A stretch of DNA of 63,566 bases, the filler included, from Reclinomonas americana ATCC 50394 (Eukaryota): NCBI GenBank assembly GCA_048213135.1. It is 9 parts of 9 records of this genome, joined end to end, with 100 filler letters (N's around TTAATTAATTAA, not from the genome) between each part and the next. Parts side by side here need not be neighbours in the genome. Positions count along the whole stretch, not along the records: positions 1 to 12,864 come from AFZH01021137.1; 8 more parts are not named here. The stretch is one strand, 5' to 3'. Both the position numbers and the translations under genes were made by a program. The notes beneath the pieces were generated by a model, which was given only the letters and a program-made list of their open reading frames with translations, was not told the DNA's origin and made no database searches. Shown here one piece after another: positions 167 through 63,566 of the stretch (positions within the stretch are counted from its first letter, which is position 1; every line of letters starts with the position of its first letter).

Positions 167-232
<66 letters not shown>

Positions 233-250
233 CACTCACTCACTCACTCA
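1..250. repeat. Simple repeats (GTAC)n/(CGGTA)n, then (CT)n and (CACT)n
   Basis: Directly visible. It lies in the intron that is CT-rich in the other paralogs (e.g. 6744-6813). Confidence 0.9.
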
Positions 251-266
251 TCAACCACGCACACAG

Positions 267-3200
267 TGTTGCCGGTCTCGCCATCGACCAAACCACGGGA
301 ACCATGTATGTCGCCGACGTGAGTGTGTGGCGGCGTGCATGAATCACGGTTGATGCATTCTGCTGACTCCAACTCTGTGCGCGTATGTTCCTCTCCCACA
401 GTTGACGAACCACGCTGTGCGTGCCGTCACTGCAGGAGCTGCTGTCACCACACTGGCGGGAAACGGAGCGTCGGGGAGTGCCAATGCCACGGGTGCAGCC
501 GCCTCTTTCAACAAACCTGTGGGAGTGGCGGTGGATGCCACGAACCAGGTGGTGTATGTGGGCGACTGGAACAACAAAAGCATTCGGCGAGTGACCTATG
601 CTGGTGCGGTGACAACCTTTTGTGGCTCGGCTGGCGCGAGTGGCACTGCCGATGGCGCGTGTGCTGGAGCGGCGCGGTTCGGTGGTCCCAACGGCGTGCT
701 TCTCGTTGGAACCACACTGTATGTTGGTGAGTGCTGTGAGAGGGAAAGCACTGGGATGCCCTTCCTCCCATCCTCATCCTCCCCACCTGCGTGTGTGTCT
801 GAGTGCAGCCGACCGCGTGAACAATTCCATCCGCGCCATCGACACGGTGGCGATGACGGTGACGACGGTGGCGGGGTCAACGAGCGGCACGTCAGGATCC
901 ACAGATGCCACCGGTGAGTTTATCATCATGTGCAACCTCATGTGATCCATTTCATTCATGCTGAAAGATGACTCCAGGAACGGCCGCCCGCTTCAACACA
1001 CCTGTGGGTATGGCATACGACGCAGGAAACAATGTCATCTATGTTGCCGATGTTGAGTACCTCCGCACACTCTGAGCGTTTCGCTTCTTGATTCTCAATG
1101 CCTTGTGCTCGACGCAGTCCGGCAACAATACTGTGCGTCAACTCCGAGTGTCAGACTCGTCAGTGTCAACGATTGGCGGCGCGGCGGGTGTGAGTGGCAC
1201 AGCCGATGGCAGTGCTCTGACCGTGGCACGCTTTTGGACACCCCACAACGTCGCGTTCGATGCATCGACGGCGTCTGTGTTGGTTTCCGACTTCAATAAT
1301 CACACCATCCGTCGCCTCTCGCTGGCGTCGCAATCAGTGTCGGCCACACCCGCCACCGCCACTGGCTCCCTCGCCACCTCCATCACCGCTTCACTGACTG
1401 GATTGATGAGCAACTGGACGTACTACTATCGCGCCGTCGGTGTCACCTCCACACCCAGCACCATCAACGGCTCTACTGTGTCGTTCAGCACCACCACGAA
1501 TGTGGCTCCGACCGACATTAGCTGCTCGTCGACGACGTATGTGTCGCCGTCGGTGGCGAATCAAGTCGTTTGTGCGCTACAGACGACGGATGCCAACACT
1601 GGCCAGTCATTCACGTACTCGATTGTCGGTGGCGCCAACAGCGCAGTGTTCTCGATCAGCGGACAGTCGCTGGTGATTGTGGCGGCGGGGCAGGCGGGCA
1701 TCTCGCTGGCGGTGACGATCAGGTCGACGGACAACGGAACGCCTGCGCTGTTCTTCGACAAGGCGTTCACCATCACCACCGGTGAGGCTCTCTCTCTCTC
1801 CTACTTCTCATCTCTTTCCCTGCTGTGCTGTGCCGGTCACTCACAATATTCCTCTTGCTACCACAGCCAATCAATCGCTGGCCACGCTGGTGGCCAACAG
1901 TGTGACAACATCGTCGGCGACATTGAATGCAGTGGTGGGCAACTCTGTGGCCGCCTCGACTATGAGCAATTCATTCGAGTGGGCACCCTCGGCGGCTGCA
2001 TTTGGTGTGACGCCAGCGGTGTCGACATGGCTTGGCACGGCGGGCATGGCGGGAACAACGGATGGCACTGGCAGTGCTGCTCTTTTCAACATGCCGATTG
2101 TGAGTATCTCGCCCCTCTCGTCGGTGACTGCTCTGCTCATGGTTGTGACGACTGGCAGAGTGTTGCGGTTGATGCTTCAGGTACTGCGTTTGTGTGCGAT
2201 CAGCAAAGCCACACAATTCGACGAGTGACGGTCGGAGGTGTGGTGTCGACATTTCTGGGAACGGCGGGAGTGTCGGGCTTTGTCGATGGGATCGGTTCCG
2301 TGGCGCGGTTTAACGGTCCCGCTGGTCTATCGATCGACTCAGCCACGGGGTATTTGTACATCGCTGATGTTGTGTTTCACCGTAAATAAGCAAGTCGGCA
2401 GTCTGTCAGGAATCACTGATACAATGTCAACAGGTCAACAACCACTCGATCCGTGTCAGTACTCCTTCTGGCTCTGTATTAACGCTGGCTGGCAACGGGT
2501 CAGTTGGCACGGCGAACGGCACCGGATCGAGCGCGAGATTCAACTCACCTCACGGCATTGTGGTTGATTCGCTCAATAGAGTGATGTACGTGGGTGACTG
2601 GCAGAACAATGCTGTCAGAAAGGCGCGTGCGTTCGTTACTGTACTGCCTGTGCCAGTGAACTCACGTTCTGGTCTTACCTCTACGCAGGTCACATTCGGT
2701 GGCGAGGTCACCACGTACTGTGGCACGATTGGCTCGCCGGGTACAGTTGACGGCGCATGTGCAACAGCACAATTTGGAGGACCCAACGGTGTGGCTGTGG
2801 ACACGACGGCCAATCGGCTGTACGTCGGTGCGTGTGTGCTTGTAAGATTATTGCGATTCATTGCGTTGTGAAACATGCACTCACCCTCTGGAGATGAGCA
2901 GCTGATCGAAGTCGCCACAACATTCGTGTGATCGACATGCTGGCGATGACTGTGTCGACTCTGGCCGGTTCCCCTACTGGAGTTTCAGGATCGACAGATG
3001 CCACTGGCACTGCTGCTCTTTTCAGCACGCCAACTGGTATTCAGGTGGACCGAGGCCGAGGTGTTCTTTATGTGGCAGATGTTGCGTTTGCATACAACTG
3101 GCAGTTTTCATGTGCATCGCCTTGCCCACCATTTGCATAGAGGAGTGGCCCGATAGTTCGTCAAATTGTTATCAGCACGGGTGCTGTCACAAGAATTGCC

Positions 3201-5899
3201 GGCGCGGCCGGAGTCGGGGGCACGGCAGATGGTGATCCACTTCTTGTCGCTAGGTTCAATGGCCCGGTATACCCTGCCCCGTGTTGTCACATTTGCGATG
3301 GTGACAACCTCTCAACCCGTGGGTGCAGGCTTATATGTCGTACCACTCCGCATCTTCCACGTTGTATATCGCAGGTGCGTGCGTGATTGCCAGCGGATTC
3401 TGCAAATGCCGCTCGTTCTGTGTCTCATCAATCTTTTCTTCAGATTTTAACAATCACACCATCCGCCGACTCACCATCGGCTCCGCCACCATCACGGCCA
3501 CACCGGCCGTCTCTGGCGTCGCCTCCAGCACCACCCTCACCGCGTCGCTCACCTCACTTGCCGCCAACTGGACGTACTACTTCCGTGCCATCTCCACGTC
3601 CACTGTGCCGAGCACCCTCACCGGTTCCACTATTTCCTTCACCACCTCCAACTCGGCACCGACCGACATTGCGTGTACCGGAACGACAATGTACGTGGCC
3701 CCGTCGACGGCCAACGCCGCTCTGTGTACAATGAGCACCAGTGACAGTGACGGTGGCCAGTCGTACACGTATGCGGTCAGCGGCGGAGCGAACGGCAACT
3801 TGTTTGCGGTGAGCGCTGGTGCACAGCTGCAGATCTCGTCGGCGGGACAGTCGGGCAGTCCTCTTCTGGTGACGATTCGCTCGTTCGATGATGGCACGCC
3901 GCCCATGTTTGTCGACAGGTCGTTCAGCGTGACGGCTGGTGAGTGATAGTTGAGAGAGGTTGTTGAGCATCTATGTCGCGCATGCTGATGTTGATTGCCT
4001 TTGTCACAAAACACGCAGCACCCGCTGTGGTATCTCTGTCGACCACCTTTGTATCGGCACTTGCTGGCCAGCTGGTGACACTGACGGGAAATTGGTTGCT
4101 GGACAACTCGGCTGATGCAGCCGCGTATGTGTTGGCCACTCCTCGATGTGGCGCCACGACGCCGCCGACTGCCGTGGCCAGCACCACCATCAGCAGTGCA
4201 TTCGGCAACTCGACCAGCGTGACGCTGACGATTGGAGCGGCGGGTGCAGCTGGTGGCACGTACGAGCTGTGCGCACGATGGACGCCGACCAGCGCTTATG
4301 TGGCGGTGTCCGCATTCGCCATTGGTGAGGGGAGAGAGAGAGAGAGAGGGCAGAGAATTCGAGCTCTCTTCTTGCGTATCTTCGTCTGAACCACATGCGC
4401 AGGAAATGTTGCGCCGAGTGACATTTTGCTGTCGGGACCGCAAACGTACTCGAGTGCGACGGTGCCATTCACGGTGGGCACACTGAGCATGGTGGATCTC
4501 AACACGGGACAGACGTCTACATTCAGCATTGTGGGTGGCATGCATGCGGCTCTTTTCAGCATCGTGGGCGGCAATCAGCTGACGATCTCGGTGGCTCCGC
4601 CGCTGAGTCGGCGACTGCAAGTGTTTGTGCAAGTGAGCGACGGGGCGCTGACGTACACCAAGCAGTTCACGATTGCGTATGGTGCGTGGGTGGGGAAGGG
4701 AGGAGACGGGAAGGGAGGTAGGAAAGATGAAGAGGAATAGTTAGGCGGTTGGCACTTTGCGTCTGAGTGTGTTTGGTGCCGATCAGTGGATACAAGGGTC
4801 GCTCTGGGAGGGCAGCAATATTATGAGTTGAGGGAGAAGAATGCAGGGCCGAATTATCAGGGGTGGAGAGGAGTGAGCGATCGCACACTCGTGTTGGTGG
4901 GTGTGCGTTTATATTGCTCGCTTGATACAGAACGCAGTTGAGAGAGAGAGAGAGAGAGGTGCACGCTGCTTGTTGTCGTCTTGCTTGCTCGCTATCTCAA
5001 GCGTCACTGATTGTTCCTTTGCACGTACAATTAGAACTACGTCTCCGCAGCGTTCTTTTGTTTATTGTGCTCGTCTCTGCGACTGCGAATGGCGCTGACG
5101 ATGATTGGGTTCGTGTGCAGCATCGAATGCAGGTTGCTCCACGGTGCAGAATGGGGTGGTGGCTCGTTGCGTTGCTTGTTCTTGAGTGCGAGACATCATC
5201 TGTCTTCTCACTCTCCATCACATCGAGAGCAGCGGCGTTGGAAGTGTGCCAGTTCGAGGCAGTGGATCGACCTGGCGGCACGGTCTTGGCCGCCATCCTC
5301 GCCGTTCGAAGCGAGGTGGCGTGCTGCGAAGCGTGCGACCGTTCCACACAGTGTCGATCGTGGACATTTCTGGATGCTGCTGCGGCGTCGAACACGTACG
5401 GCGCGAGTGTGTGCACACTGAAGGCACGTGATCGAGAGAGGAGGGAGATTGTGAGGGGAGTGATAAGCTCACTATCTGTCTTGTGTTACCTGCAGAGCAC
5501 CGTGCCAGCAGCAACAGCGAATGCAGAGACCAGCAATGTGTGTGGCTCGCATTTCTGCTTGGTATCGGGACGCAAGACGAGTGCAGCGGCGTATGACAGC
5601 AGCGGGTTCCAGACCAGCACGGGTGAGTTGCTGGAATGCTCTTCGCTCAGATGAAGGAGAATCGTGACTGATGTGGTTGCTTGCATGCAGATCGACCTGG
5701 CGGCGATCTCACGTGGGCCATCACCACCGCAAGTGGACCACAAGCGTGCTCGCTGTGGTGCTCTCAGTTGACCGCCTGCGGATCATGGACATTCACGGCG
5801 TCGACAAGGCAGTGTGTGCCGAAGAGCGGCGTGGTGGCCACGTCGGTATGGACGGCATGTGCGATGAGTGGGGACTGCACGTCGGGGTTGAAGATTTGA
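267..5899 (+). CDS. NHL-propeller/FN3/cadherin-like/PAN protein, copy A (5' partial, multi-exon)
   Basis: Spliced exons give NHL blades (GVAVD..YVGDWNN..IRRV), FN3 halves (SATLNA..SFEW / LTGLMSNWTYYYRA..VSFST), cadherin-like repeats (APTDI..TTDAN.GQSFTYSIVGG..FSISG..IRSTDNG..FDKAFTI) and two PAN/apple domains (DRPGG..CC..C....CRSWTF). Stop is TGA at 5897-5899. Confidence 0.85.
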
Positions 5900-5916
5900 G
5901 TGAAGCTGGATTATTA

Positions 5917-5926
5917 TTTGGCGCCA
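5917..5926. promoter_or_regulatory. Candidate promoter element TTTGGCGCCA (E2F-like) in the A-B spacer
   Basis: Conserved in all three spacers that precede an ATG. Perfect palindrome TTTTGGCGCCAAAA at 56070-56083 and 62248-62261. Absent after terminal copy B. Confidence 0.4.
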
Positions 5927-5972
5927 GAATTGGAGTTCCAACCGTTTCCGCGTTGCGTGAGTGCATGCGCAA

Positions 5973-8900
5973 ATGCGCCTGTCTCACTCGCGCACACCCC
6001 GACTCGCTGTGGCACGCACACTCTTGTGTGTGACAGCGATCGTCCACTTGCTCATCCTCTCCATCGCCGTCCCTGCGAGTTGCGTGTGAGGGGGGCAGTG
6101 TGGGCGCTTATGCATGTATCTTATGCGCCGCTGTGTGTCTCGTTCGACTCTCACTCACGCATAACACGCACACTCGACTCTTCTCTCCATGCGCGCCACA
6201 GACGCCCAGACAGTCACTACCGCCGTTGCCAACAACATCACTGGCACCTCTGCCACTCTCAATGCATGGGTCAATCCCAACAATGTCGTTGGCGGCACCA
6301 CCAACTCTTTCGAGTGGTCCCCCTATGCTGCTGCCATTGGTATCTCTTCGGCCACAGTCGCCACCTTTGCGGGCACGGCGGGCACCTCGGGAACGACGGA
6401 TGGCGTTGGCACAAGTGCAAAATTTAACACGCCAATGGTTTGTGCGCGAAAGGTGACCCTGCTGTGCACTTTCGCTGACACAATGCGTGTGTGCTCTCCA
6501 CAGGGACTGGCCTTTGATGCGATGGGCAACATGTACGTGGGCGATTACGGGTTTGTCATGCACGCACTCATATCACTCTTCCTGTTTTCTGTCGATTGTT
6601 GATTCGTCACTTCTCTCTCTCACATGCGATGATGGCAGCAACTGTCGCATTCGGCGAATCACGCCTGCAGCCACAGTGACCACCTTTGCTGGCACAGCAT
6701 GCGGCCTGCTTGATGGCACAGGAGTGGCTGCTCAGTTCAAAAAGTGCGCTCCTGTCCTGCTCTCTCTCTCTCTCCCTCCCTCCTCTCTCTCCCTCATGCA
6801 CACACCCACACAGTGTTTCCGGTCTCGCCATCGACCAAACCACGGGAACCATCTATGTCGCCGACGTGAGTGTGTGGTGGCGTGCATGAATCACTCTTGA
6901 TTGCCACACACATTCTGCTGACTCTTGAATCTGTGCATCTCTCTTCCAGATGTGGAACCACGCTGTGCGTGCCGTCACTGCGGGAGCAGCTGTCACTACA
7001 CTGGCTGGAAACGGAGCGTCGGGGAGTGCCAATGCCACGGGTGCAGCCGCCTCCTTCAATCTGCCTGCCGGAGTGGCGGTGGACTCCGCGAACCAAGTGG
7101 CGTATGTGGGCGACTGGAACAACAACACTGTGCGGCGAGTGACCTATGCCGGCGTGGTGACAACCTTTTGTGGCTCCACGGGCGCGAGTGGCACCGCCGA
7201 TGGTGCGTGTGCTGGAGCGGCGCGGTTCGGTGGTCCCAACGGCGTGCTGCTCGTCGGAACCACGCTGTATGTTGGTGAGCGCTGTGTGATAAGGAGCACT
7301 GAGATGCCCTTCCTCCCATCCTCATCCTCCCCACCTGCTTGTGTGTCTGAGTGCAGCCGACCGCGTGAACAATTCCATCCGCGCCATCGACACGGTGGCG
7401 ATGACGGTGACGACGATGGCGGGGTCAACAAGCGGCACTTCAGGATCCACGGATGCCACCGGTGAGTTTATCATCATGGGCAACCTCATGTGATCCTTTT
7501 CATTCATGCTGAAAGATGACTCCAGGAACGGCCGCCCGCTTCAACACGCCTGTGGGACTGGCATACGACTCGGGAAACAATGTCATCTACATCGCCGATG
7601 TTGAGTACCTCCGCACACTCTGAGCGTTTCGCTTCTTGATTCTCAATGCCTTGTGCTCCACGCAGTCCGCCAACAACACTGTGCGGCAACTCCGAGTGTC
7701 AGACTCGTCAGTGTCGACGATTGGCGGCGCGGCGGGTGTGAGTGGCACAGCTGATGGCAGTGCTCTGACCGTGGCACGCTTTTGGACACCCCACAACGTC
7801 GCGTTTGATGCATCGACGGCGTCCATGCTGGTTACCGATTACACCACGCACATTATCCGTCGCCTCTCGCTGGCGTCGCAATCGGTGTCGGCCACACCCG
7901 CCGCCGCCACTGGCTCCCTTGCCACTTCCATCACTGCCTCATTGATTGGATTGATGAGCAACTGGACGTATTACTATCGCGCCGTCGTTGTCACCTCCAC
8001 ACCCAGCACCATCAACGGCTCTACTGTGTCATTCACCACCACCACCAACGTGGCTCCCACCGACATTAGCTGCTCGTCGACGACATACGTTTCGCCGTCG
8101 GTGGCGAATCAGGTCGTGTGTGCTCTACAGACGACGGACGCGAATGCTGGCCAGTCATTCACGTACTCGATTGTCGGTGGCGCCAACAGCGCAGTGTTTT
8201 CGATCAGCAGGCAGTCGCTGGTGATTGTGGCGGCGGGGCAGGCTGGCAGCTCGCTGGCGGTGACGATCCGGTCGACAGACAACGGATCGCCGCCGCTGTT
8301 CTTCGACAAGGCGTTCACCATCACCACAGGTGAGGCACCCTCTACCTTCTTCTTCATTTCTTTTCCCTACTGTGTTGTGTTGGTCATTTATGATGTTCCT
8401 CTTGCTTGTTGATGCGTCACAGCCACCCAATCGCTGGCCACGCTGGCGGCCAGCAGCGTGACCACGTCGTCGGCGACATTGAATGCAGTGGCGGGCAACT
8501 CTCTGGCCGCCTCGACAATGAGCAGCTCGTTTGAGTGGGCACCAACAACGGCTGCCTTCGGTGTGACGCCTGCGGTGTCGACATGGGTGGGCACGGCGGG
8601 CATGACTGGCTCAACAGATGGCACGGGTAGTGCTGCTCGTTTCAACAGACCGGTTGTATGTATCCGCCACTTTCGCCCTCTCGTCGATAGCTGCTCTGCT
8701 CAGTGTTGAGGCGACTGGCAGAGTGTTGCGATCAACGCATCGGGTACTGCGTTTGTGTGCGATCAATTCAATCACACAATTCGACGAGTGACGAGTGGCG
8801 GAGTGGTGTCGACGTTTCTGGGAACGGCAGGAATGTTGGGCTTTGTCGATGGGATCGGCGCCGCTGCGCGGTTTAGCTCGCCCGCTGACTTATCGGTTGA

Positions 8901-9420
8901 TTTGACCACGGGATATTTATACATTGCTGATGTTTCGTGGTGTCCTTTTGATTAGTGCACCTCGAGGGTGATATTCTCACTTGCGCGCTTTCCAGCAATT
9001 AAATCATTCGATCCGTGTAAGTACTCCTTCTGGCTCAGTGTCAACGCTGGCTGGCAACGGATCTCTCGGTGCTGCGAACGGCACCGGATCAAGCGCGAAG
9101 TTTAACGTTCCACACGGCATTGTGGTTGATTCTTTGAACAGAGTGATGTTTGTTGGCGACTGGAGCAACGTGGCTGTGAGAAAGGTGTGGCATCGCTTAA
9201 TACGTTGCATTCCTCTAGCAAATCATTGATCCTTCTGCCAGGTTACATATGGCGGCGAGGTCACCACCTACTGCGGTACGATTGGCTCGTCTGGTACAGT
9301 TGACGGTGCATGTACGCCCACAGCACGGTTTGGTGGACCAATTGGTTTGGCACTGGATTCAACAACCAATCGGCTGTACGTCGGTGCGTGCGTGCGTGCG
9401 TGCGTGCGTGCATGTGTGTG

Positions 9421-9461
<41 letters not shown>

Positions 9462-12400
9462 GCGTTTTGGAAGATCCTTCGACCAAGTATACTGACTTGG
9501 TCGAGCAAATTGGGAAGCTGATCGAGATCGTAACAACATTCGTGTGATTGACATGCTGGCGATGACGGTGTCGACTCTGGCCGGTTCGCTTACTGGAGCT
9601 GCAGGATCGACAGATGCTACTGGCACTGCTGCTCTATTTAGCACTCCAGTTGGCGTCCAGGTGGACCGAGGCCGAGGTGTTCTCTATGTGGCAGATGTTG
9701 CGTTTCGCGATTACCTGGCAGTTTTTCATGTGCATCACCTTACCCACTACATGCATAGAGGAATGGTCACACTATTCGTCAAATTGTTATCAGCACGGGT
9801 GCCGTCACAAGAATTGCCGGCACGGCTGTAGTCGCGGGCACAGCAGATGGCGATCCACTCCTTTCCGCCAAGTTCAATGGCCCGGTATGCCCTGCCCCGT
9901 GTTGTCACTTTTGCGATGGTGACAACCTCTCAACCCGTGGGTGCAGGCTTATATGTCGTACCACTCCGCGTCATCCACGCTGTACATCGCAGGTGCGAAG
10001 TCTCCATCAAGTTGTGCGATCGTCGCTCTCTCTGTGTCTCATCATTTCTCTCATTAGATTACGGCAATCACACCATCCGCCGACTCACCATCGGCTCTGC
10101 CACCATCACGGCCACTCCGGCCACCTCCGGCGTCGCCTCCAGCACTACCCTCACCGCGTCGCTCACCTCACTTGCCGCCAATTGGACGTACTACTTCCGT
10201 GCCATCTCCACGTCCACTGTGCCGAGCACTCTCACCGGTTCTACGATGTCCTTCACCACCTCCAACTCGGCACCGACCGACATTGCCTGCTCTGCCACGT
10301 ATGTCGCACCATCAACTGCCAGCATGGCTGTATGCACGATGAGCACCAGCGACGGTGATGGGAGCCAGTCGTACACGTACATTATCACCGGCGGAGCAAA
10401 CAACAGCGTGTTCTCCCTCGGTGGCGGCGGTGCGCAGCTGCAGATCACGTCGGCGGGACAGTCGGGTAGTCCATTGGCCATCACGATTCGCTCGTTCGAC
10501 AATGGCACGCCGCCCATGTTCTTCGACAAGTCATTCAGTGTGATGTCGGGTGAGTGATGTCGATTAAGAGTACTTTATCTTTTCGGTGTGGATGCTGAGC
10601 ATGTTTTTGCGCAGTGAATAATGCACCGACGGCGGTAACGCTGAGTGCGAGCTCGTACATTCCGCCCAGCACGGTGGGTCTGGCGATTGGCACGATGAGC
10701 ACGAGTGACGTGGACTCGCAGCAGTCGTTCACGTATTCGGTGGTGGGAGGTGCCAGCAGCGCGTTGGTGACGATTGTGTCTGGGAACCAGCTGCAGTTTG
10801 TGACTGCGAATGTTACAACGTCGCTGGTGGTGATTGTGCGCACGACCGACAATGGCAATCCTGCCATGTCATTCGATCAGACGCTCAACATTGCTGGTTG
10901 CGTGTTGTTCTGACTGTGTGAAGTTGTGATGCAACAAGATGCTGAATTCCTCGCATGCAGCACCCGCTGTGGCATCTATGTCGGCCACGTTTGTGTCGGC
11001 ACTGGCTGGCCAGTTGATAACACTTACGGGTACTGGATTGCTGAACAACTCGGCTGATGCAGCCGCGTACGTGTTGGCCACTCCTCGATGTGGCGCCACG
11101 ACGCCGCCGACTGCCGTGGTCAGCACCACCATCAGCAGCGCATTTGGAAGTGCGACCAGCATCACGTTGACGATTGGAGCGGCGGGTGCAGCTGGTGGCA
11201 CGTACGAGCTGTGCACTCGATGGTTGTCTGCCAAGGGATATGTGGCGGTGTCGGCATTCGCGATTGGTGAGGGGAGAGAGAGACAGGGCAGAGAGAATTC
11301 AAGCTCTCTTCTTGCGTGTCGTCGTCTGAACAGCATGTGCAGGAAATGTGGCGCCGAGTGACATTCTGCTGTCAGGACCGCAAACGTACTCGAGTGCTAC
11401 AGTGCCATTCACCGTGGGCACACTGAGCATGGTGGATCTCAACACTGGACAGACGCCGACATTCAGCATTGTGGGTGGCATGCAGGCGGCTCTGTTCAGT
11501 CTGGTGGGCGGCAATCAGCTGACGATCTCGGTGGCTCCGCCTCTGTATCGCCGACTGCAAGTGTTTGTGCAAGTGAGCGACGGGGCGTTGACGTACACCA
11601 AGCAGTTCACGATTGCGTATGGTGCGTGGGTGGGGAATGGAGGTGAAAGAGAAAGGAAGGGGGACGGGACTGTATGATTGCTGTCGCCCTCTTTTCTCCT
11701 GTGAAGCTGCACATCGGTGGGCGTGAGTGGTTGGTGCTGAGAATTGGTGGGTGCTTGTGCAGTTTGGGGCGCAGGTTGCACGACGGTGCAGAATGGGATG
11801 GTTGCTCGTTGCGTAGCTTTTGCATGAGATGTTGACGTGCGAGCCGTCATCAGTTGTCTCACTCTCCATCACATCGAGAGCAGCGGCGTTGGAAGTGTGC
11901 CAGTTCGAGGCAGTGGATCGACCTGGTGGCACGATCCTGGCTGTGATGCCGTCTGTCGCAAGCGAGGTCGGATGCTGCGAAATGTGCGATCTGTACTCAC
12001 AGTGTCGATCGTGGACATTTCTGGATGCTGCTGCGGCGTCGAACACATCTGGAGCAAGTGTGTGCACACTGAAGGCACGTGATCGAGAGAGGAGGGAGAT
12101 TGTGAGGGGAGTGATAAGCTCACCGTCTACGTGTGTTGCATACAGAGCACCGTGCCAGCAGCAGCAGCGAATGCAGAGACCAGCAATGTGTGTGGCTCGC
12201 ATTTCTGCTTGGTATCGGGACGCAAGACGAGTGCGGCTGCATACGACAGCAGCGGGTTCCAGACCAGCACGGGTGAGTTGCTGGAATGCTCTTCGCTCAG
12301 ATGAAGGAGAACGGTGACTGATGTGGTTGGTTGCTTGCATGCAGACCGCCCTGGCGGCGATCTCACGTGGGCCATCACCACCACGAGTGGACCACAAGCG

Positions 12401-12553
12401 TGCTCGCTGTGGTGCTCTCAGTTGACCGCCTGCGGCTCGTGGACATTCACTGCGTCGACAAGGCAGTGTGTGCCAAAGAGCGGCGTGGTGGCCACGTCGA
12501 CGGCGACAGCGTGTGCTACGAGTGGGGACTGCACGTCGGGGTTGAAGATATGA
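5973..12553 (+). CDS. NHL-propeller/FN3/cadherin-like/PAN protein, copy B (complete, 24 exons by manual splicing)
   Basis: Exon 1 (5973-6078) joined to 6202 gives MRLSHSRTPRLAVARTLLCVTAIVHLLILSIAVPANA-QTV, a signal-peptide-like start. All junctions are phase-consistent. It has an extra cadherin exon at 10615-10896 and ends SGLKI*. No TM segment or GPI tail seen. Confidence 0.85.
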
Positions 12554-54600: not shown

Positions 54601-56063
54601 NNNNNNNNNNNNNNNNNNNTTAATTAATTAANNNNNNNNNNNNNNNNNNNNNNNNNNNNNNNNNNNNNNNNNNNNTTCAGCATTGTGGGTGGCGTGCACT
54701 CAGCACTCTTCAGTGTGATTGGCGGCAATCAGCTGACGATCTCGGTGGCTCCGCCGCTGAGTCGGCGACTGCAAGTGTTTGTGCAAGTGAGCGACGGGGC
54801 GCTGACGTACACCAAGCAGTTCACGATTGCGTATGGTGCGTGGGTGGGGAAGGGAGGAGACGGGAAGGGAGGTAGGAAAGATGAAGAGGAATAGTTAGGC
54901 GGTTGGCACTTTGCGTCTGAGTGTGTTTGGTGCCGATCAGTGGATACAAGGGTCGCTCTGGGAGGGCAGCAGTATTATGAGTTGAGGGAGAAGAATGCAG
55001 GGCCGAGTCATCGGGGGTGGAGAGGAGTGAGCGATCGCACACTCGTGTTGGTGGGTGTGCATTTATGTTGCTCGCTTGATACAGAACGCAGTTGAGAGAG
55101 AGAGAGAGAGAGGTGCACGCTGCTTGTTGTCGTCTTGCTTGCTCGCTATCTCAAGCGTCACTGATTGTTCCTTTGCACGTACAATTAGAACTACGTCTCC
55201 GCAGCGTTCTTTTGTTTATTGTGCTCGTGCTTTTTTCTCTGCGACTGGGAATGGTGCTGATAAGGATGATTGGGTGCGTGTGCAGCATCGAATGCAGGTT
55301 GTTCCACGGTGCAGAATGGAGTGGTGGCTCGTTGCGTTGCTTGCTTGAGTGCGAGCCATCATCTGTCGTCTCACTCTCCATCACATCGAGAGCAGCGGCG
55401 TTGGAGGTGTGCCAGTTCGAGGCAGTGGATCGACCTGGCGGCACGGTCTTGGCCGCCATCCTCGCCGTTCGAAGCGAGGTGGCATGCTGCGAAGCGTGCG
55501 ACCGTTCCACACAGTGTCGATCGTGGACATTTCTGGATGCTGCTGCGGCGTCGAACACGTACGGCACGAGTGTGTGCACACTGAAGGCACGTGATCGAGA
55601 GAGAGGAGGGAGATTTTGAGGGGAGTGATAAGCTCACCGTCTACGTGTGTTGCATGCAGAGCACCGTGCCAGCAGCAACAGCGAGTGCAGAGACCAGCAA
55701 TGTGTGTGGCTCCCATTTCTGCTTGGTATCGGGACGTAAGACGAGTGCGGCTGCGTACGACAGCAGCGGGTTCCAGACCAGCACGGGTGAGTTGCTGGAA
55801 TGCTCTTCGCTCAGATGAAGGAGAATCGTGACTGATGTGGTTGCTTGCATGCAGATCGACCTGGCGGCGATCTCACGTGGGCCATCACCACCACAAGTGG
55901 ACCACAAGCGTGCTCGCTGTTGTGCTCTCAGTTGACCGCCTGCGGCTCGTGGACATTCACTGCGTCGACAAGGCAGTGTGTGCCAAAGAGCGGCGTGGTG
56001 GCCACGTCGACGGCGACAGCGTGTGCGACAAGTGGGGACTGCACGTCGGGGCTGAAGATTTGA
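48957..56063 (+). CDS. NHL/FN3/cadherin-like/PAN protein, copy C (spans two gaps)
   Basis: Signal exon MHVSHSRTPRLAVARTLL.., exon order co-linear with copy B across contigs, ends SGLKI*. Continuity across the gaps is inferred. Confidence 0.7.
51521..51800. repeat. (TC)n and (CCT)n microsatellites (intronic)
   Basis: Directly visible next to a gap. Confidence 0.95.
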
Positions 56064-56127: not shown

Positions 56128-59100
56128 ATGCGCGTGTCTCACTCGCTCACTGGACTCGATGTTGCACGCACGCTGTTGTGTGTTACAGCGATCGTCCACT
56201 TGCTCGTCCTCTCCATCGCCGTCTCTGCGAGTTGCGCATGAGGGGGCGCTTGGACTCTCACTCGAGCATCTGACGCTCACGACTCTTCTCTCCATGCGCG
56301 CCACAGACGCCCAGACAGTCACCACCGCCGTTGCCAACAACATCACTGACACTTCTGCCACTCTCAATTCATGGGTCAATCCCAACAATGTTGCTGGCGG
56401 CACCACCAACTCTTTCGAGTGGTCTCTATACACCGCCGCGATTGGTGTCTCTTCGGCCACTGTCGCCACCTTTGTGGGCACGGCGGGCACCTCGGGAACG
56501 ACGGATGGCGTTGGAGCAAGCGCGTTGTTGAACACGCCAATGGTTTGTGCGCGACGTCACAAGGCACCCGCTGCTGCGCCTGCTGTGCACTTTCGCTGAC
56601 ACAATGCGTGTGTGCTCTCTCGACAGGGACTGGCCTTTGATGCGATGGGCAACATGTACGTGGGCGATTACGGGTTTGTCATGCACGCACTCTTCGTGTT
56701 GTCTGTCGATTGTTGATTCGTCCCTTCTCGCTCTCTCACTTACACGCGATGATAATGGCAGCAACTGTCGCATTCGACGCATCACGCCTGCAGCCACAGT
56801 GACCACGTTTGCGGGAAGCACGTGTGGCTTGGTGAATGGTACAGGAGTGGCTGCACAGTTCAAAAAGTGCGCTCTCTTCATCTCTTCATCTCTCCCTCCC
56901 TCCTCCCTCCCTTTCCACACTCACACACCCACACAGTGTTGCCGGTCTCGCCATTGACCAAACCACGGGAACCATGTATGTCGCCGATGTGAGTGTGTGG
57001 TGGCGTGCATGAATCACGGTTGATGCCACACACATTCTGCTGACTCCAACTCTGTGCGCGTATTTCTCTCTCCCACAGTTGACGAATCACGCTGTGCGTG
57101 CCGTCACTGCAGGAGCTGCTGTCACCACACTGGCGGGAAACGGAGCGTCGGGGAGTGCGAATGCCTCGGGTGCAGCCGCCTCCTTCAATCAGCCGATGGG
57201 AGTGGCGGTGGACTCCGCGAACCAAGTGGTGTATGTGGGCGACTGGCTCAACAACACTGTGCGGCGAGTGACCTATGCTGGTGCGGTGACAACCTTTTGT
57301 GGTTCTGCGGGCATGAGTGGCACAGCCGATGGTGCGTGTGCTGGAGCGGCGCGGTTCGGTGGTCCCAACGGCGTGCTTCTCGTTGGAACCACGCTGTATG
57401 TTGGTGAGTGCTGTGTGAGAGGGAGGCACTGAGATGCCCTTCCACCATTCCCATCTACGTCTTCTGTCTGGTGTGCAGCCGATCGCGTGAACAATTCCAT
57501 CCGAACCATCGACACGGTGGCGATGACGGTGATGACGATGGCGGGGTCAACGAGCGGCACTTCAGGATCCACGGATGCCACCGGTGAGTTCAACATTATG
57601 GGCAACCCCGTGTGATCCATTTCATTCATGCTGAAAGATGACTCCAGGAACGGCCGCCCGCTTCAACACGCCCGTGGGACTGGCATACGACGCAGGAAAC
57701 AATGTCATCTATGTTGCCGATGTTGAGTACCTCCCCACACTCTGAGCGTTTCGCTTCTTGATTCTCAATGCCTTGTGCTCCACGCAGTCCGGCAACAACA
57801 CTGTGCGGCAACTCCGAGTGTCAGACTCGTCAGTGTCGACGATTGGCGGCGCGGCGGGTGTGAGTGGCACAGCCGATGGCAGTGCTCTGACCGTGGCACG
57901 CTTCAATTCGCCCGTGCACCTCGCGTTCGATGCATCGACGGCGTCCGTGCTGGTTGCTGATTACACCACGCACATCATCCGTCGCCTCTCGCTGGCGTCT
58001 CAATCGGTGTCGGCCACACCCGCCACCGCCACTGGCTCCCTCGCCACCTCCATCACTGCCTCACTGACTGGATTGATGAGCAACTGGACGTACTACAATC
58101 GCGCCGTCGGTGTCACCTCCACACCCAGCACCGTCGATGGTGCCACTGTGTCATTCACCACCGCCACCAACGTGGCTCCCACCGACATTAGCTGCTCGTC
58201 GACGACGTATGTGTCGCCGTCGGTGGCGAATCAGGTCGTGTGTGCGCTGCAGACGACGGATGCCAACACTGGCCAGTCATTCACGTACTCGGTTGTCGGT
58301 GGCGCCAACAGCGCAGTGTTCTCGATCAGCGGACAGTCGCTGGTGATTGTGGCGGCGGGGCAGGCTGGCAGCTCGCTGGCGGTGACGATCCGGTCGACGG
58401 ACAATGGATCGCCGCCGCTATTCTTTGACAAGGCGTTTACCATCACCACCGGTGAGGCACCCTCTTCCTTCTTCTTCATTTCTTTTCCCTACTGTGTTTT
58501 GCTGGTCATTTATGATGTTCCTTTGCTTGTTTATGCATCACAGCCACCCAATCGCTGGCCACGCTTGCGGCCAGCAGCGTGACCACATCGTCGGCGACAT
58601 TGAATGCGGTGGTGGGCAACTCTGTGGCCGCCTCGACGATGAGCAATTCATTCGAGTGGGCACCAACAACGGCTGCCTTCGGTGTGACGCCAGCAGTGTC
58701 GACATGGCTTGGCACGGCGGGCATGGCGGGAACAACGGATGGCACGGGTAGTGCTGCTCGTTTCAACAGACCGGTTGTGAGTATCTCGCCCCGTTATAAC
58801 ACGCTGCAATTCTCATGATCGAGGCGACTGGCAGAGTATTGAGATCGACGCATCGGGCACGGCATTCGTGTGCGATCAGCTGAACCACACAATTCGGCGA
58901 GTGACGAGTGGCGGAGTGGTGTCGACGTTTCTGGGAACGGCGGGAGTGTCGGGCTTTGTCGATGGGATCGGTGCGGCTGCTCGGTTTAACGCACCCACCG
59001 ACGTAGCGATGGACCCGCTCACCGGATTCTTGTTCATTATTGATGTGGGTAGTTGAATGTCCGAGGAAACTTTTCTCCGCGAGTCCTTGATCTCCTACTG

Positions 59101-62100
59101 CCACGCGTTCCAGGTTGGAAACCACGCGGTCCGTGTGAGCACTCCTTCTGGCTCTGTATCAACGCTGGCTGGCAATGGATCTGGAAGTGCAAACGGCGTC
59201 GGTTCAAGCGCAAGGTTTAACCATCCGCGAAGTATTACGGTTGACGCGGCCAGCAAAGCAGCGTACGTGGGTGACTGGAATAACAATGCTGTCAGAAAGG
59301 TGTGTGCGGTTGTTGCTGCACTGATCTGCACGGTGCAGATATCATATCCTTCGTTACAACAACCTAGGTCACATATGGCGGCGAGGTCACCACGCACTGT
59401 GGCACGATGGGGTCGTCGGGTACAGTCGACGGCGCATGTGCGACAACAGCACGATTCGGTGGACCGAATGGCGTCGCATTGGATTCCGTGGCTAATCGGC
59501 TGTACGTCGGTAGGGTTACAGTCTAGATTCAGAGGGGAGGAGAGAAGAAGAAAGAAAGGGTTGGGACGAGACAATTGGAGAGTACTGCGTGGAGCGAGGA
59601 ACACAAAGATGAGAGACCCGCGATGATGCATCGGATGGTGAGAAAATACTCCGAAGTAACAGTTGAGGGTTTCTAATGAGGACGAGGGAGGCATTCTGGT
59701 TGTGCGTATGTGTATACGTGTTTGGAGACCGTATTGGTGAGGAAAGTGCACTAATGTTGTGCTCACGAGCAGCTGATCGAGATCGCCACAACATTCGTGT
59801 GATCGACATGCTGGCGATGACGGCGTCGACTCTAGCCGGCTCGCTTACCGGGGTTTCTGGGTCAACAAATGCCACGGGCACTGCGGCTCAATTCAATCAG
59901 CCCCTTAGCATCCAGCTCGATCAAGGAAGAGGCGTACTTTACGTCTGTGATGTTGTGTTTGATGTCCACCAGCATGTTCTGTGCGTATTCTGTCTGCTCA
60001 CAAACTCAAATTCCCCGCCCCAAAGTTCTCCAACAACATCGTTCGTCAAGTTAACATCAGCACCGGCATGGTCTCCACAATTATTGGTGCTGCAGGAGTT
60101 GCCGGATCTGCAGATGGCAGCCCACTCGCGACTGCTCGCTTGTATATTCCGGTATGCTTAATCGCCAGGATGTATGGCGTCTTAACAGCTCGAAACCTGT
60201 AGCCCATTTTAATATGCAGACTGTGGTGGCTTTCGATACCGGGTCGTCAGCTCTGTACATCGCAGGTGCGCAAGGTTTTGAATTTGCCGTACTTCCCTCT
60301 ACTCATCATCTCTCTCCTTAGATTACGGCAATCACACCATTCGCCGACTCACCATCGGCTCCGCCACCATCACGGCCACTCCGGCCACCTCTGGTGTCGC
60401 CTCCAGCACCGCTCTCACCGCATCACTGACATCACTTGCCGCCAACTGGACGTACTACTTCCGTGCCATCTCCACCACCACCGTGCCGAGCACTCTCACC
60501 GGTTCCACCATGTCCTTCACCACCTCCAACTCCATGCCGACCGACATTGTCTGCTCAACTACCACTTATGTCGCACCGTCAACTGCCAGCATGCCTGTAT
60601 GCACGATGAGCACCAGCGACGGCAACGGAGGCCAGTCGTACACGTATGCGGTCAGCGGTGGAGCAAACAACAGCGTGTTCTCCCTCGGTGGCGGCGGCGC
60701 ACAGCTGCAGATCACCGNNNNNNNNNNNNNNNNNNNNNNNNNNNNNNNNNNNNNNNNNNNNTTAATTAATTAANNNNNNNNNNNNNNNNNNNNNNNNNNN
60801 NNNNNNNNNNNNNNNNNAGACGCCGACATTCAGCATTGTGGGTGGCGTGCACTCAGCACTCTTCAGTGTGATTGGCGGCAATCAGCTGACGATCTCGGTG
60901 GCTCCGCCGCTGAGTCGGCGACTGCAAGTGTTTGTGCAAGTGAGCGACGGGGCGCTGACGTACACCAAGCAGTTCACGATTGCGTATGGTGCGTGGGTGG
61001 GGAAGGGAGGAGACGGGAAGGGAGGTAGGAAAGATGAAGAGGAATAGTTAGGCGGTTGGCACTTTGCGTCTGAGTGTGTTTGGTGCCGATCAGTGGATAC
61101 AAGGGTCGCTCTGGGAGGGCAGCAGTATTATGAGTTGAGGGAGAAGAATGCAGGGCCGAATTATCAGGGGTGGAGAGGAGTGAGCAATCGCACACTCGTG
61201 TTGGTGGGTGTGCGTTTATATTGCTCGCTTGATACAGAACGCAGTTGAGAGAGAGAGAGAGAGAGAGGTGCACGCTGCTTGTTGTCGTCTTGCTTGCTCG
61301 CTATCTCAAGCGTCACTGATTGTTCCTTTGCACCTACAATTAGAACTACGTCTCCGCAGCGTTCTTTTGTTTGTTGTGCTCGTACTTTTTTCTCTGCGAC
61401 AGGGAACGGTGCTGACGATGATTGGGTTCATGAACACAGCATCGAATGCAGGTTGCTCCACGGTGCAGAATGGGATGGTGGCTCGTTGCGTTGCTTGTGA
61501 ATGAGATGTTGACGTGCGAGCCATCATCTATCGTCTCACTCTCCATCACATCGAGAGCAGCGGCGTTGGAAGTGTGCCAGTTCGAGGCAGTGGATCGACC
61601 AGGCGGCACGGTCTTGGCCGCCATCCTCGCCGTTCGAAGCGAGGTGGCGTGCTGCGAAGCGTGCGATCGTTCCACACAGTGTCGATCGTGGACATTTCTG
61701 GATGCTACTGCGGCATCGAACACGTACGGCGCGAGTGTGTGCACACTGAAGGCACGTTACCGAGAGAGGAAGGAGATTGTGAGGGGAGTGACAAGCTCAC
61801 TATCTGTCTGTGTTGCATGCAGAGCACCGTGCCAGCAGCAGCAGCGAATGCAGAGACCAGCAATGTGTGTGGCTCACATTTCTGCTTGGTGTCGGGACGC
61901 AAGACGAGTGCGGCTGCGTATGACAGCAGCGGGTTCCAGACCAGCACGGGTGAGTTGCTGGAATGCTCTTCGCTCAGATGAAGGAGAACGGTGACTTATG
62001 TGGTTGGTTGCTTGCATGCAGATCGACCTGGCGGCGATCTCACGTGGGCCATCACCACCGCAAGTGGACCACAAGCATGCTCGCTGTGGTGCTCTCAGTT

Positions 62101-62230
62101 GACCGCCTGCGGATCGTGGACATTCACGGCGTCGACAAGGCAGTGTGTGCCAAAGAGCGGCGTGGTGGCCACGTCGGTATGGACGGCATGTACGATGAGT
62201 GGGGACTGCACGTCGGGGTTGAAGATTTGA
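56128..62230 (+). CDS. NHL/FN3/cadherin-like/PAN protein, copy D (spans one gap)
   Basis: Signal exon MRVSHSLTGLDVARTLLCVTAIVHLLVLSIAVSANA-Q, two propellers and cadherin repeats. The Ig-like exon would fall in the gap. PAN exons end at 62230. Confidence 0.75.
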
Positions 62231-62308: not shown

Positions 62309-63566
62309 ATGCGCGTGTCTCACCCGCGCACACCCCGACTCGCTGTGGCACGCACACTCTTGTGTGCGACGGCGATCGTCCACTTGCTCATCCTCTCCAT
62401 CGCTGTCCCTGCGAGTTGCGTGTGTGGGGCAGAGTGGGTGCTTATGCATGTATCTTATGCGCCGCTGCGTGTCTCGTTCGACTCTCACTCACGTATAACA
62501 CGTACACTCGACTCATCTCTCCATGCGCGCCACAGACGCCCAGACAGTGACTACCGCCGTTGCCAACAACATCACTGGCACCTCTGCCACTCTCAATTCA
62601 TGGGTCAATCCCAACAATGTCGCTGGCGGCACCACCAACTCTTTCGAGTGGTCTCTATACACCGCCGCGATTGGTGTCTCTTCGGCCACTGTCGCCACCT
62701 TTGTGGGCACGGCGGGCACCTCGGGAACGACGGACGGCGTTGGCGTAAGTGCTTTGTTGAACACGCCAATGGTTTGTGCGCGAAAGGTGACCCTGCTGTG
62801 CACTTTCGCTGACACAATGCGTGTGTGCTCTCCACAGGGACTGGCCTTTGATGCGATGGGCAACATGTACGTGGGCGATTACGGGTTTGTCATGCACGCA
62901 CTCATATCACTCTTCCTGTTTTCTGTCGATTGTTGATTCGTCACTTCTCTCTCTCACACTGCGCGATGATGATGGCAGCAACTGTCGCATTCGACGCATC
63001 ACGCCTGCAGCAACGGTGACCACGTTTGCTGGCACAACATGCGGCTTGCTTGATGGCACAGGAGTGGCAGCTCAGTTCAAAAAGTGCGCTCCTGTCCTGC
63101 TCTCTCTCTCTCCCTCCATCCTCTCTCTCCCTCCCTCCTCTCTCTCCCTCATGCACACACCCACACAGTGTTGCCGGTCTCGCCATCGACCAAACCACGG
63201 GAACCATGTATGTCGCCGACGTGAGTGTGTGGCGGCGTGCATGAATCACGGTTGATGCATTCTGCTGACTCCAACTCTGTGCGCGTATGTCTCTCTCCCA
63301 CAGTTGACGAACCACGCTGTGCGTGCCGTCACTGCAGGAGCTGCTGTCACCACACTGGCGGGGAATGGAGCGTCTGGGAGTGCCAATGCCTCGGGTGCAG
63401 CCGCCTCCTTCAATCTGCCTGCCGGAGTGGCGGTGGACTCCGCGAACCAAGTGGTGTATGTGGGCGACTGGAACAACAACACTGTGCGGCGAGTGACCTA
63501 TGCCGGCGTGGTGACGACCTTTTGTGGCTCCACGGGCGCGAGTGGCACCGCCGATGGTGCGTGTGC
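62309..63566 (+). CDS. NHL/FN3/cadherin-like/PAN protein, copy E (3' truncated by the window)
   Basis: Signal exon MRVSHPRTPRLAVARTLLCATAIVHLLILSIAVPA, FN3 N-half and the first NHL blades. Confidence 0.85.

Follow-up and report, generated by a model that had tools for sequence, protein, structure and literature searches.

A tandem family of predicted secreted double NHL-propeller proteins in Reclinomonas americana with a diverged second propeller

We propose that Reclinomonas americana ATCC 50394 carries a family of paralogous secreted binding proteins under concerted evolution, in which the second of two NHL propellers is the diverged module, a reading to which we assign a probability of about 0.6. 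The data show old divergence that has been retained despite gene conversion; positive selection is not proven.

Results

Five head-to-tail paralogs, here called A to E, lie on the plus strand of the window, by which we mean the whole 63,566-nt stretch of DNA analysed (Table 1), in agreement with an initial annotation that had counted at least five. That annotation had placed the tandem family at positions 267-12553, an interval that does hold copies A and B head to tail, but C, D and E lie outside it, at 48.9-63.6 kb. Because the window consists of contigs joined by spacers (44 N, 12 bases and 44 N at each joint), it cannot be inferred that A and B neighbour C, D and E.

The junctions of copy B were obtained by enumerating GT..AG pairs and keeping those that leave the frames open, which gives a coding sequence of 4716 nt whose sole stop is the terminal one. 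When the B exons are mapped onto A, C, D and E, AG/GT boundaries follow directly from the alignment in 62 of 65 exon copies, and the remaining three are resolved by two GC donors and two shifted acceptors. Low-complexity repeats at positions 1-230 cut off the 5' end of copy A, which is open as far as its terminal stop and retains its AG/GT boundaries apart from one GC donor at position 2623. From copy to copy, exons change in length by multiples of three only, except in the spacer-interrupted exon 19 of C; intron lengths vary freely, and the translated exon models of all copies contain no internal stop outside the spacers. As predicted gene models, then, the array consists of intact, intron-rich genes.

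This integrity bears on whether the copies are alleles, haplotigs or mis-assembled repeats, with their mosaic made by the assembler. The window is a chain of contigs with three spacers inside copies C and D, and some segments are 97-100% identical between copies, as such an artefact would have it; against this, A and B share one unbroken contig; likewise, one contig carries the end of C together with most of D, and another joins the end of D to the start of E. Moreover, propeller 2 differs by 17-31% at the amino-acid level, with unalignable introns there, and open frames and splice sites are kept in all copies, unlike in random chimeras. We consider an artefact of this kind very improbable.

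The least certain junction of the B model is intron 19, which connects the NHL/cadherin part to the PAN part and is unusually long (262-560 nt, versus 54-145 nt for most other introns; A has 551 nt and C 560 nt). Splice sites conserved over this long intron are the basis of the predicted join, and the PAN part may belong to a gene of its own. Upstream of the PAN exon, a candidate start for such a gene is disrupted in B and C.

Table 1. Coordinates of the predicted genes and of their domains along the window.
Feature	Position	Strand	Basis or remark
Copy A, 5'-truncated	267..5899	+	18 exons, blade 2 of propeller 1 to stop codon; exons located by aligning the DNA of B
Six-bladed NHL propeller 2 of copy A, introns included	2010..3472	+	domain coordinates carried over via protein alignment
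Copy B, complete gene model	5973..12553	+	23 exons, 1571 aa
Copy B exon 1, predicted signal peptide	5973..6078	+	start exon conserved in B, C, D, E
Propeller 1 of copy B, with six NHL blades (52-58 aa each)	6351..7866	+	Pfam NHL above cut-off; repeat register
Copy B beta-sandwich (FN3-like resemblance only) and cadherin-fold domain 1	7867..8328	+	AF2, Foldseek, Pfam
Propeller 2 of copy B (six NHL blades), where the family diverges most	8566..10086	+	identity, dS, introns
Copy B beta-sandwich and cadherin-like domain 2	10087..10548	+	50-54% identical to module 1; tblastn between modules
Additional cadherin-like exon	10615..10896	+	44% identical to cadherin-like domain 1 (tblastn)
Copy B IPT/TIG-like domain, single exon	10961..11266	+	Pfam TIG below cut-off
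Copy B cadherin-like domain 4, single exon	11343..11621	+	40% identity to cadherin-like domain 1 (tblastn)
Intron 19 of B, NHL/cadherin part to PAN part	11622..11883	+	donor and acceptor conserved in A, B, C, D
Copy B two PAN_4 domains and linker, then stop codon	11884..12553	+	Pfam PAN_4
Copy C	48957..56063	+	outside 267-12553; two contig spacers within; GC donor at 51319
Copy D	56128..62230	+	outside 267-12553; spacer 60718-60817 removes about four exons
Copy E	62309..63566	+	outside 267-12553; cut off by window end

Each predicted protein begins with a signal peptide. Six NHL blades, a beta-sandwich and a cadherin-fold domain then occur twice in succession, and a TIG-like domain, one more cadherin-like domain and a PAN_4 pair complete the chain. 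The unit duplicated inside the protein comprises a short N-terminal beta segment, the six-bladed propeller, the beta-sandwich and the cadherin-fold domain. The additional cadherin-like exon of B has no counterpart in the DNA alignments of A and C, and a spacer occupies the site in D. Secretion, as initially claimed, is supported by the conserved, predicted signal-peptide exon, which encodes the only strongly hydrophobic stretch: residues 11-36 form the sole Kyte-Doolittle peak above 2 in the 1571-aa B model. The predicted proteins are large, secreted and non-membrane.

The claim of double NHL propellers with PAN domains is likewise supported, with two predicted six-blade propellers and a C-terminal PAN pair whose profiles exceed the Pfam cut-offs. 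NHL (PF01436) scores 24.1, 33.4 and 28.7 bits on three ORF pieces against a cut-off of 20, each propeller has six in-register repeats of 52-58 aa, and propeller 1 matches Pizza/PknD, SOQ1, NHLRC2 and a teneurin-like protein among PDB sequences. An AF2 model, which covers two blades only, has four strands per blade at a pLDDT of 92.8, and the Foldseek matches listed for it are mostly NHL propellers. Both PAN_4 domains (PF14295; 36.3 and 28.4 bits in B, 37.8 and 34.5 bits in A, cut-off 27) contain cysteines, and a word-based search detected no sequence relative of them.

The "near-identical FN3 and PAN scaffolds" of the initial annotation hold in part. The PAN part is 89-98% identical between copies and the first sandwich and cadherin module 93-95%, but the second such module of B is just 82% identical to those of A and C, and fn3 (PF00041) gave no match at E <= 1 on the ORF pieces holding the beta-sandwich segments. 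The AF2 model of exon 8 is confident for the cadherin-like part only: residues 125-221 have mean pLDDT of 84-94 per 10-residue block, while the beta-sandwich part falls below 50. Every PDB match listed by Foldseek for the cadherin-like part is a cadherin or protocadherin (for example cadherin-23 EC24-25, rmsd 2.9 over 95 columns), cadherin-23 is matched by sequence at E = 0.006, and PF00028 is carried by the bacterial homologs that align there, although the Pfam Cadherin profile (PF00028) itself misses its cut-off here (14 bits versus 28.8, E = 0.07). For the most part, domains of other kinds lie between one cadherin-like domain and the next. Pfam TIG (PF01833) is a near miss, at 17.1 bits versus 20.9 (E = 0.0055).

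Six-bladed propellers could also be enzymes of the lactonase, arylesterase or amidating-lyase type, with the array serving dosage or substrate range. Weak Pfam Arylesterase matches occur on blade pieces (17.4 bits versus a cut-off of 21.3), one of them just above it (22.9 bits, E = 1e-4), bacterial NHL homologs carry precomputed SGL/arylesterase labels, and the fold search lists a peptidyl-alpha-hydroxyglycine lyase at rank 38. Yet the Arylesterase matches are confined to a stretch that also matches the NHL repeat, and the best matches, by sequence as well as by fold, are to non-enzymatic NHL domains. The central-channel strand that holds the metal in such enzymes is not conserved among the second propellers of the paralogs, and a combination of cadherin-like, TIG-like and PAN domains is typical of surface or matrix proteins. 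A catalytic role thus seems improbable to us.

Amino-acid identity between copies is 69-83% in propeller 2, versus 88-95% in propeller 1. All seven series of propeller 2 motifs quoted initially for A to D recur exactly in the protein alignment of the translated exons. Blade positions were set from the repeat register and then checked against the confident two-blade model. The further claim that differences cluster at loop motifs is upheld for the F-x-x-P-x-G and D-x-x-N-H loops, where 39 of 66 sites in propeller 2 vary versus 101 of 271 elsewhere (Fisher p = 0.002), but the innermost strand (19/24) and the A-B turn (13/23) are as variable. Propeller 1 behaves similarly, with 25 of 66 variable sites in the two loop motifs versus 35 of 266 elsewhere (p = 2e-5). 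Blade topology and the two modelled blades support a placement of both variable loops on one face of the propeller. The initial annotation had taken these loops to form the ligand-binding top face; what can be retained is that the enrichment falls in loops on one face by topology, and that passages of PMC9634614 describe the top opening of NHL domains as a diverse binding site.

The divergence of propeller 2 extends to neutral sites. Its dS is 0.47-1.07 versus 0.14-0.24 in propeller 1, its four-fold-site distance is 0.34-0.63 versus 0.11-0.17, and its introns are mostly 40-70% identical, compared with 77-100% for those of propeller 1 and 85-100% for most of the 3' introns. The contrast between scaffold and propeller 2 therefore tracks neutral divergence, which points to uneven gene conversion. 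The closest pair of copies also shifts along the gene: A and C are 87% identical in intron 10 (other pairs 47-55%), A and B are 82% and 97% identical in introns 13 and 14 (other pairs 44-60%), and A and C are again 97% identical across about 550 nt of intron 19. We interpret the conserved scaffold and variable propeller 2 mainly as a mosaic of homogenisation, as suggested by these sequence comparisons; some of its segments could be assembly chimeras, since contigs are broken by spacers inside C and D.

Purifying selection is evident on every domain in codon comparisons, with dN/dS of 0.09-0.44 in all eight regions and all pairs. The diversifying selection initially suggested is not borne out: dN/dS over the whole of propeller 2 is 0.18-0.29, the same as in the rest of the gene, and even the x positions of the loops (38-48 per comparison) reach 0.58-1.33, versus 0.12-0.24 for the rest, with none of 12 pairwise bootstrap intervals above 1. 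These tests are weak and the pairs non-independent, because only four, recombining sequences cover propeller 2, and a loop dN/dS near 1 is also expected from weak or episodic positive selection.

Discussion

A diversifying recognition repertoire, in which selection would favour new propeller 2 loops and remove homogenising conversions while the exchange of blade segments adds combinations, is possible but unproven, and we regard it as unlikely. Such a repertoire would account for the enrichment of variable sites in the loops of both propellers, for a dN/dS at loop positions that is near 1 and 4-5 times that of the rest (the ratio against four-fold-site distance is 0.9-1.1 in propeller 2 and 1.0-1.7 in propeller 1), for mosaic segments within propeller 2, and for a drop in identity that in all six pairs begins near the 5' edge of propeller 2 and stops near its 3' edge. 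It would also fit the innermost strand, which lines the central channel and is the class most raised in propeller 2 relative to propeller 1 (mean pairwise difference 0.493 versus 0.083). Against it, no comparison has a dN/dS significantly above 1 (ten of the intervals include 1 and two lie wholly below it), and the ratio over whole loop motifs is 0.16-0.49. The variable positions are also those that differ among the blades of one protein, and hence generically free positions of the repeat, and loop lengths are nearly fixed, with three one-codon indels across both propellers. Strong divergence alone suppresses recombination, and could isolate propeller 2 without selection.

No close relative was found among 1.84 billion representatives searched, the nearest being bacterial NHL-cadherin surface proteins, and no single protein among the matches listed has the whole architecture. 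With the exon joining blade, beta-sandwich and cadherin-like domain as query, 227 of these representatives match at E <= 1e-30, and the best relatives are NHL-plus-cadherin surface proteins of Bacteroidota and others (T9SS or gliding-associated giant adhesins), including proteins named as T9SS-sorting, gliding-motility-like or immunoglobulin-domain. The nearest Atlas cluster, from Bacteroidota, carries NHL, TEN_NHL and Cadherin (score 0.81, a lead only). The bacterial proteins are at most 47% identical, prokaryotic and intron-less, usually with sorting or anchor domains, whereas the family described here has 22 introns and PAN domains, duplicates its propeller module and begins with a predicted eukaryotic signal peptide.

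Bacteroides lipoproteins with an IPT/TIG domain and an NHL propeller (PDB 3tc9, 4hw6), also recovered in the sequence search, likewise combine an Ig-like domain and an NHL propeller at the cell surface, and 3tc9 is the best fold match of the two modelled blades (E = 9e-5, TM 0.78 on the query), followed by SOQ1, NHLRC2 and a teneurin-like protein. They have one propeller, without cadherin-like or PAN domains, and from the entry title we take their function to be that of an "auxiliary nutrient binding protein". The teneurin/NHLRC2/SOQ1-type NHL domains (Pfam TEN_NHL), matched by sequence and by fold, share the long blades and the glycine-rich D-A loop, but they occur in the context of a YD shell or a thioredoxin-like domain, and in single-copy genes rather than tandem families. 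TRIM-NHL proteins (Brat, LIN-41/TRIM71, TRIM2/3) have six four-stranded blades, as predicted here and modelled for two, and a diverse top opening described as the binding site (PMC9634614, PMC4015489, PMC5908797). They differ in that they act inside the cell as RNA binders and E3 ligases and have shorter blades, and homology is limited to the repeat. Toxoplasma MIC4 and similar adhesins are secreted and use PAN/apple domains as lectin modules, MIC4 being described in PMC6829480 as binding terminal galactose. MIC4 differs in having apple domains only.

Copies A to E resemble a general pattern of tandem multigene families, in which the frame is homogenised and the recognition part has diverged: their flanks evolve in concert around an old, mosaic variable region. 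The resemblance is one of sequence pattern; the classic examples are in addition defined by variegated expression, positive selection and a large number of copies.

Under concerted evolution, the reading we prefer, the predicted proteins would be adhesin- or lectin-like binders whose propellers bear the binding face; the sandwich domains would form a stalk, and the two PAN domains would provide a further end for binding or anchoring. Homogenisation by unequal crossing-over or gene conversion would explain the 88-98% identity seen in propeller 1, in the stalk and at the PAN end, and propeller 2 would have escaped it and now consist of old, partly reshuffled variants. At the unconstrained positions of the two same-face loops, in either propeller, change proceeds at about the neutral rate, and constraint on the rest is about five-fold stronger. 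The data do not show selection to be the driver of these differences, but the paralogs therefore probably differ in the putative ligand of propeller 2.

Gene family and gene models

The DNA of the window is eukaryotic in character, with about 56% G+C and short GT-AG introns. Self-comparison revealed two tandem units at 213-5904 and 6760-12558, 84-90% identical and each containing an internal repeat, and a protein-level scan added three further units downstream in the window. Placed by DNA comparison, these are five head-to-tail paralogs, here called copies A to E (see the table). The initial annotation had located a family of at least five paralogs at 267-12553; the count is borne out for the whole window by both the protein scan and the DNA comparison, but that interval holds only copies A and B, and copies C, D and E lie outside it.

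Every join in the window consists of 44 N, a 12-base linker with a stop in every frame and another 44 N, so that the window is made up of contigs strung together. Copies C and D are interrupted by three of these joins, one of them mid-exon. Copies A and B share a contig; most of D is on one contig with the end of C, and the start of E on one with the end of D; A-B and C-D-E sit on separate contigs, and linkage of the array is read only within each contig. Copy A lacks its 5' third: positions 1-230 are occupied instead by low-complexity repeats, (GTACC)n-like and (TC)n arrays, which may mark an assembly breakpoint. The gaps from the stop of one copy to the start of the next measure 73 nt (5900-5972), 64 nt (56064-56127) and 78 nt (62231-62308), a spacing that leaves very little room for each gene to have its own promoter and UTRs, and that makes one ask whether transcription is polycistronic or trans-splicing is involved.

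Table. Family members, contig joins and neighbouring genes in the window
Feature	Coordinates	Strand	Basis
Copy A	up to 5899	+	DNA comparison
Copy B	5973-12553	+	DNA comparison
Copy C	48957-56063	+	DNA comparison
Copy D	56128-62230	+	DNA comparison
Copy E	62309 to window end	+	DNA comparison
Contig join	12865-12964		
Contig join	23124-23223		
Contig join	30336-30435		
Contig join	43879-43978		
Contig join	48834-48933		
Contig join	51421-51520		
Contig join	54576-54675		
Contig join	60718-60817		
DOCK-type exchange factor (DHR-2 lobes A and C)	13412-15550	+	
GPI transamidase subunit PIG-U	33953-34984	+	
Protein kinase	36153-36902	-	
Armadillo-repeat protein(s)	38091-43721	-	
m-AAA (FtsH/AFG3-like) protease	44240-46628	-	

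Copy B served as the reference gene model. All GT..AG pairs that keep the flanking frames open were enumerated, and junctions were chosen by splice motif and blade pattern, giving 23 exons, 22 introns and a CDS of 4716 nt that encodes 1571 aa and ends in a single terminal stop. When the exons of copy B were transferred to the other copies by DNA alignment, AG and GT were present at the mapped boundaries in 62 of 65 exon copies, and the other three are explained by two GC donors (2623 in A, 51319 in C) and two acceptors shifted by the alignment. Where the GC donors occur the other copies have GT, and the frames stay open if these are GC-AG introns. Exon lengths differ between copies by multiples of three, with the sole exception of exon 19 of copy C, which is interrupted by a spacer; intron lengths vary freely, and no internal stops outside the spacers occur in any copy's model. 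The family members are intact genes rather than pseudogenes.

The least certain junction of the model is intron 19 (262 nt in B, 551 nt in A, 560 nt in C), which joins the part encoding NHL and cadherin-like domains to the part encoding PAN domains. The PAN part might instead be a separate gene, given a possible start codon, with a short hydrophobic stretch, that lies upstream of its exon; this candidate start is open in A and D and broken in B and C. Because of that break, and because the donor and acceptor of intron 19 are conserved in all four copies from A to D, we kept a single gene, and we infer that both parts belong to one protein. The intron itself (4682-5232 in A, 11622-11883 in B, approximately 54836-55395 in C) carries a (GA)n run, and A and C share 97% identity along roughly 550 nt of it; in an alignment of the linker region that of D is nearly identical to both, and B has lost about 300 nt.

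Among the other introns, intron 8 of copy C (51319-51935), which is filled with a triplet repeat and includes a contig spacer, extends to about 620 nt, its counterparts in A, B and D measuring 85-93 nt, and intron 12, which spans 74-263 nt among the copies, begins in B with a (GT)n microsatellite at 9384-9462. Exons 17-23 of copy B (10058-12553) all begin in phase 1, and mostly one exon corresponds to one domain (cadherin-like, TIG-like, PAN), a layout that would suit exon duplication; B also possesses an extra cadherin-like exon (10615-10896) that is absent from A and C. Two stop-free antisense ORFs, at 11372-12835 (-; 487 codons) and 3577-4740 (-; 387 codons), match no family and span introns of the + strand genes, and are probably an effect of composition.

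Domain architecture

In B, C, D and E, a conserved exon 1 codes for a basic segment, some 17 hydrophobic residues and a cleavage-like site of small residues. Nowhere else is the protein strongly hydrophobic, and hence it has no membrane anchor. After a short beta segment there follow six NHL repeats of 52-58 aa, which match Pfam NHL above its cut-off and, by sequence, the PDB entries of PknD-derived Pizza proteins, SOQ1, NHLRC2, a teneurin-like protein and TRIM71. The 108-aa exon containing blades 3-4 of this first propeller was modelled as four-stranded blades with a pLDDT of 92.8, and the top fold matches of the two-blade model were a Bacteroides IPT/TIG-NHL 'auxiliary nutrient binding protein', SOQ1, NHLRC2 and a teneurin-like protein; blade 6 modelled in isolation remained below a pLDDT of 50. 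The beta-sandwich behind the propeller, part of what had been described as an FN3 scaffold, gave no Pfam fn3 match and a model with pLDDT below 50, and we call it FN3-like by resemblance only. The domain after the sandwich is modelled confidently (mean pLDDT of 84-94 per block of 10 residues) and, among the listed PDB matches, resembles only cadherin and protocadherin domains, its score lying below the Pfam cadherin cut-off. The whole module of propeller, sandwich and cadherin-fold domain occurs twice, the second sandwich-cadherin pair being 50-54% identical to the first, and is followed by a TIG-like exon (17.1 bits against a Pfam cut-off of 20.9), a further cadherin-like exon and two PAN_4 domains above their Pfam cut-off.

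Variation and selection in the propellers

The initial annotation had proposed that differences between copies cluster in two loop motifs of the NHL blades, F-x-x-P-x-G and D-x-x-N. Every motif series that it quoted is found in the alignment of the five models. Propeller residues were assigned to strand and loop classes by repeat register, with which the strands of the confident two-blade model agree; by four-stranded antiparallel topology, the D-A loop (ending in F-x-x-P-x-G) shares one face of the blade with the B-C loop (D-x-x-N-H), and the A-B and C-D turns are on the opposite face. Among copies A-D, variable sites are enriched in the two motifs in both propellers, with 39 of 66 sites against 101 of 271 elsewhere in propeller 2 (Fisher p 0.002) and 25 of 66 against 35 of 266 in propeller 1 (p 2e-5), so that the proposed clustering holds. 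Two further classes in propeller 2, the innermost strand with 19 of 24 sites variable and the A-B turn with 13 of 23, equal the named loops in variability. The hot zone is the inner part of each blade, reaching beyond the two loops. The free residues (x positions) of the loops differ also between blades of a single protein, and they are the generically free positions of the NHL repeat.

Identity along the genes forms a mosaic in which the closest pair of copies switches repeatedly. Amino acid identity between copies is 88-95% in propeller 1, 93-95% in the first sandwich-cadherin pair and 89-98% in the PAN part, and falls to 69-83% in propeller 2 (56% for blades 5-6 between C and D). Silent divergence parallels this pattern: propeller 2 has an NG86 dS of 0.47-1.07, compared with 0.14-0.24 for propeller 1 and 0.08-0.30 for the first sandwich-cadherin and PAN parts, and the four-fold-site distance is 0.34-0.63 in propeller 2 versus 0.11-0.17 in propeller 1. 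The introns of propeller 2 align with many gaps and mostly at 40-70% identity; those of propeller 1 reach 77-100%, and over most of the 3' part the figure is 85-100%. Since silent sites and introns also diverge more in propeller 2, the contrast between this propeller and the conserved scaffold is mainly a matter of concerted evolution of the flanks, propeller 2 being an old, partly reshuffled core. That core contains islands of recent exchange between copies: A and C share 87% identity in intron 10, and A and B share 82% in intron 13 and 97% in intron 14. Exon identities agree with these islands, A resembling C around blades 2-3 and B in blades 5-6.

Every domain in every pair yields a dN/dS of 0.09-0.44 (0.18-0.29 over propeller 2), and no strand or loop class attains 1. 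The x positions of the loops (38-48 codons per comparison) give 0.58-1.33 relative to the propeller's own dS, and the remaining propeller positions 0.12-0.24; measured against four-fold-site distance, the ratio at the x positions is about 0.9-1.1 for propeller 2 and 1.0-1.7 for propeller 1. Of the 12 bootstrap intervals for the x positions, 10 include 1, two are entirely below it and none is above it, the comparisons being non-independent pairs among four recombining sequences, with propeller 2 near saturation. Loop ratios are thus not well below 1, as the proposal of diversifying loops needs, but positive selection finds no support. These estimates suggest that the x positions evolve about neutrally, roughly five times less constrained than the rest.

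Relatives and genomic surroundings

Searched against 1.84 billion representatives, the exon that encodes blade 6, the sandwich and the cadherin-like domain matched 8295 proteins at E <= 0.001, none of them above 47% identity. Four of the ten matches looked up were named, all bacterial surface proteins; a word-based search agrees, being dominated by bacterial cadherin proteins, and the nearest Atlas cluster comprises Bacteroidota NHL+TEN_NHL+cadherin proteins, with a score that is only a lead. The PAN exon found no relative in the sequence search, a metagenome scan returned two distant loci (51% and 47% identity over about 65 residues), and a search of the window with Rfam gave no family. The neighbouring genes listed in the table form an ordinary eukaryotic context; a conserved exon of the m-AAA protease had no match exceeding 71% identity. 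Amid these intron-rich genes, a single-exon ORF at 21045-21599 (+) strongly matches a bacterial-type 3-demethylubiquinone-9 3-methyltransferase/PhnB-like domain (114 bits).

Discussion

We conclude that the tandem family is real and well defined, and that its secreted multidomain proteins join their domains in a new combination; among the papers listed in literature searches, none describes the double-NHL/cadherin/PAN architecture in its title or abstract. PMC9634614 portrays the top opening of NHL propellers as a diverse binding site, PMC4015489 and PMC5908797 are cited for the same role, and PMC6829480 for lectin activity of PAN/apple domains. The proteins most likely act in binding or adhesion. 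We suggest that both propellers would serve as binding modules, the second differing between paralogs, that the sandwich domains would form a stalk and that the PAN pair would provide a second binding end.

The further step, that the family constitutes a recognition repertoire, we put at about 15-20%. One version of it, equally doubtful in our estimation, would make propeller 2 a specificity module built from cassettes, with blade segments and their introns swapped between tandem paralogs and selection blocking its homogenisation. Such a process would yield a heritable combinatorial repertoire of secreted binders, directed at prey, microbes or self, in a single-celled eukaryote, based on a bacterial-type module fused to PAN domains.

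What we report is a well-supported gene family with a putative binding role, and not evidence of an immune-like system. Should the gene model hold, it represents a eukaryotic architecture unseen before, in which a doubled module of NHL propeller and cadherin-fold domain, with its nearest relatives among bacterial surface proteins, is combined with PAN domains and arranged in tandem. The family also offers a clean, small case of concerted evolution that spares one domain, and, given more copies, transcripts and binding data, it could reveal whether a microbial eukaryote keeps secreted binders of different specificities.
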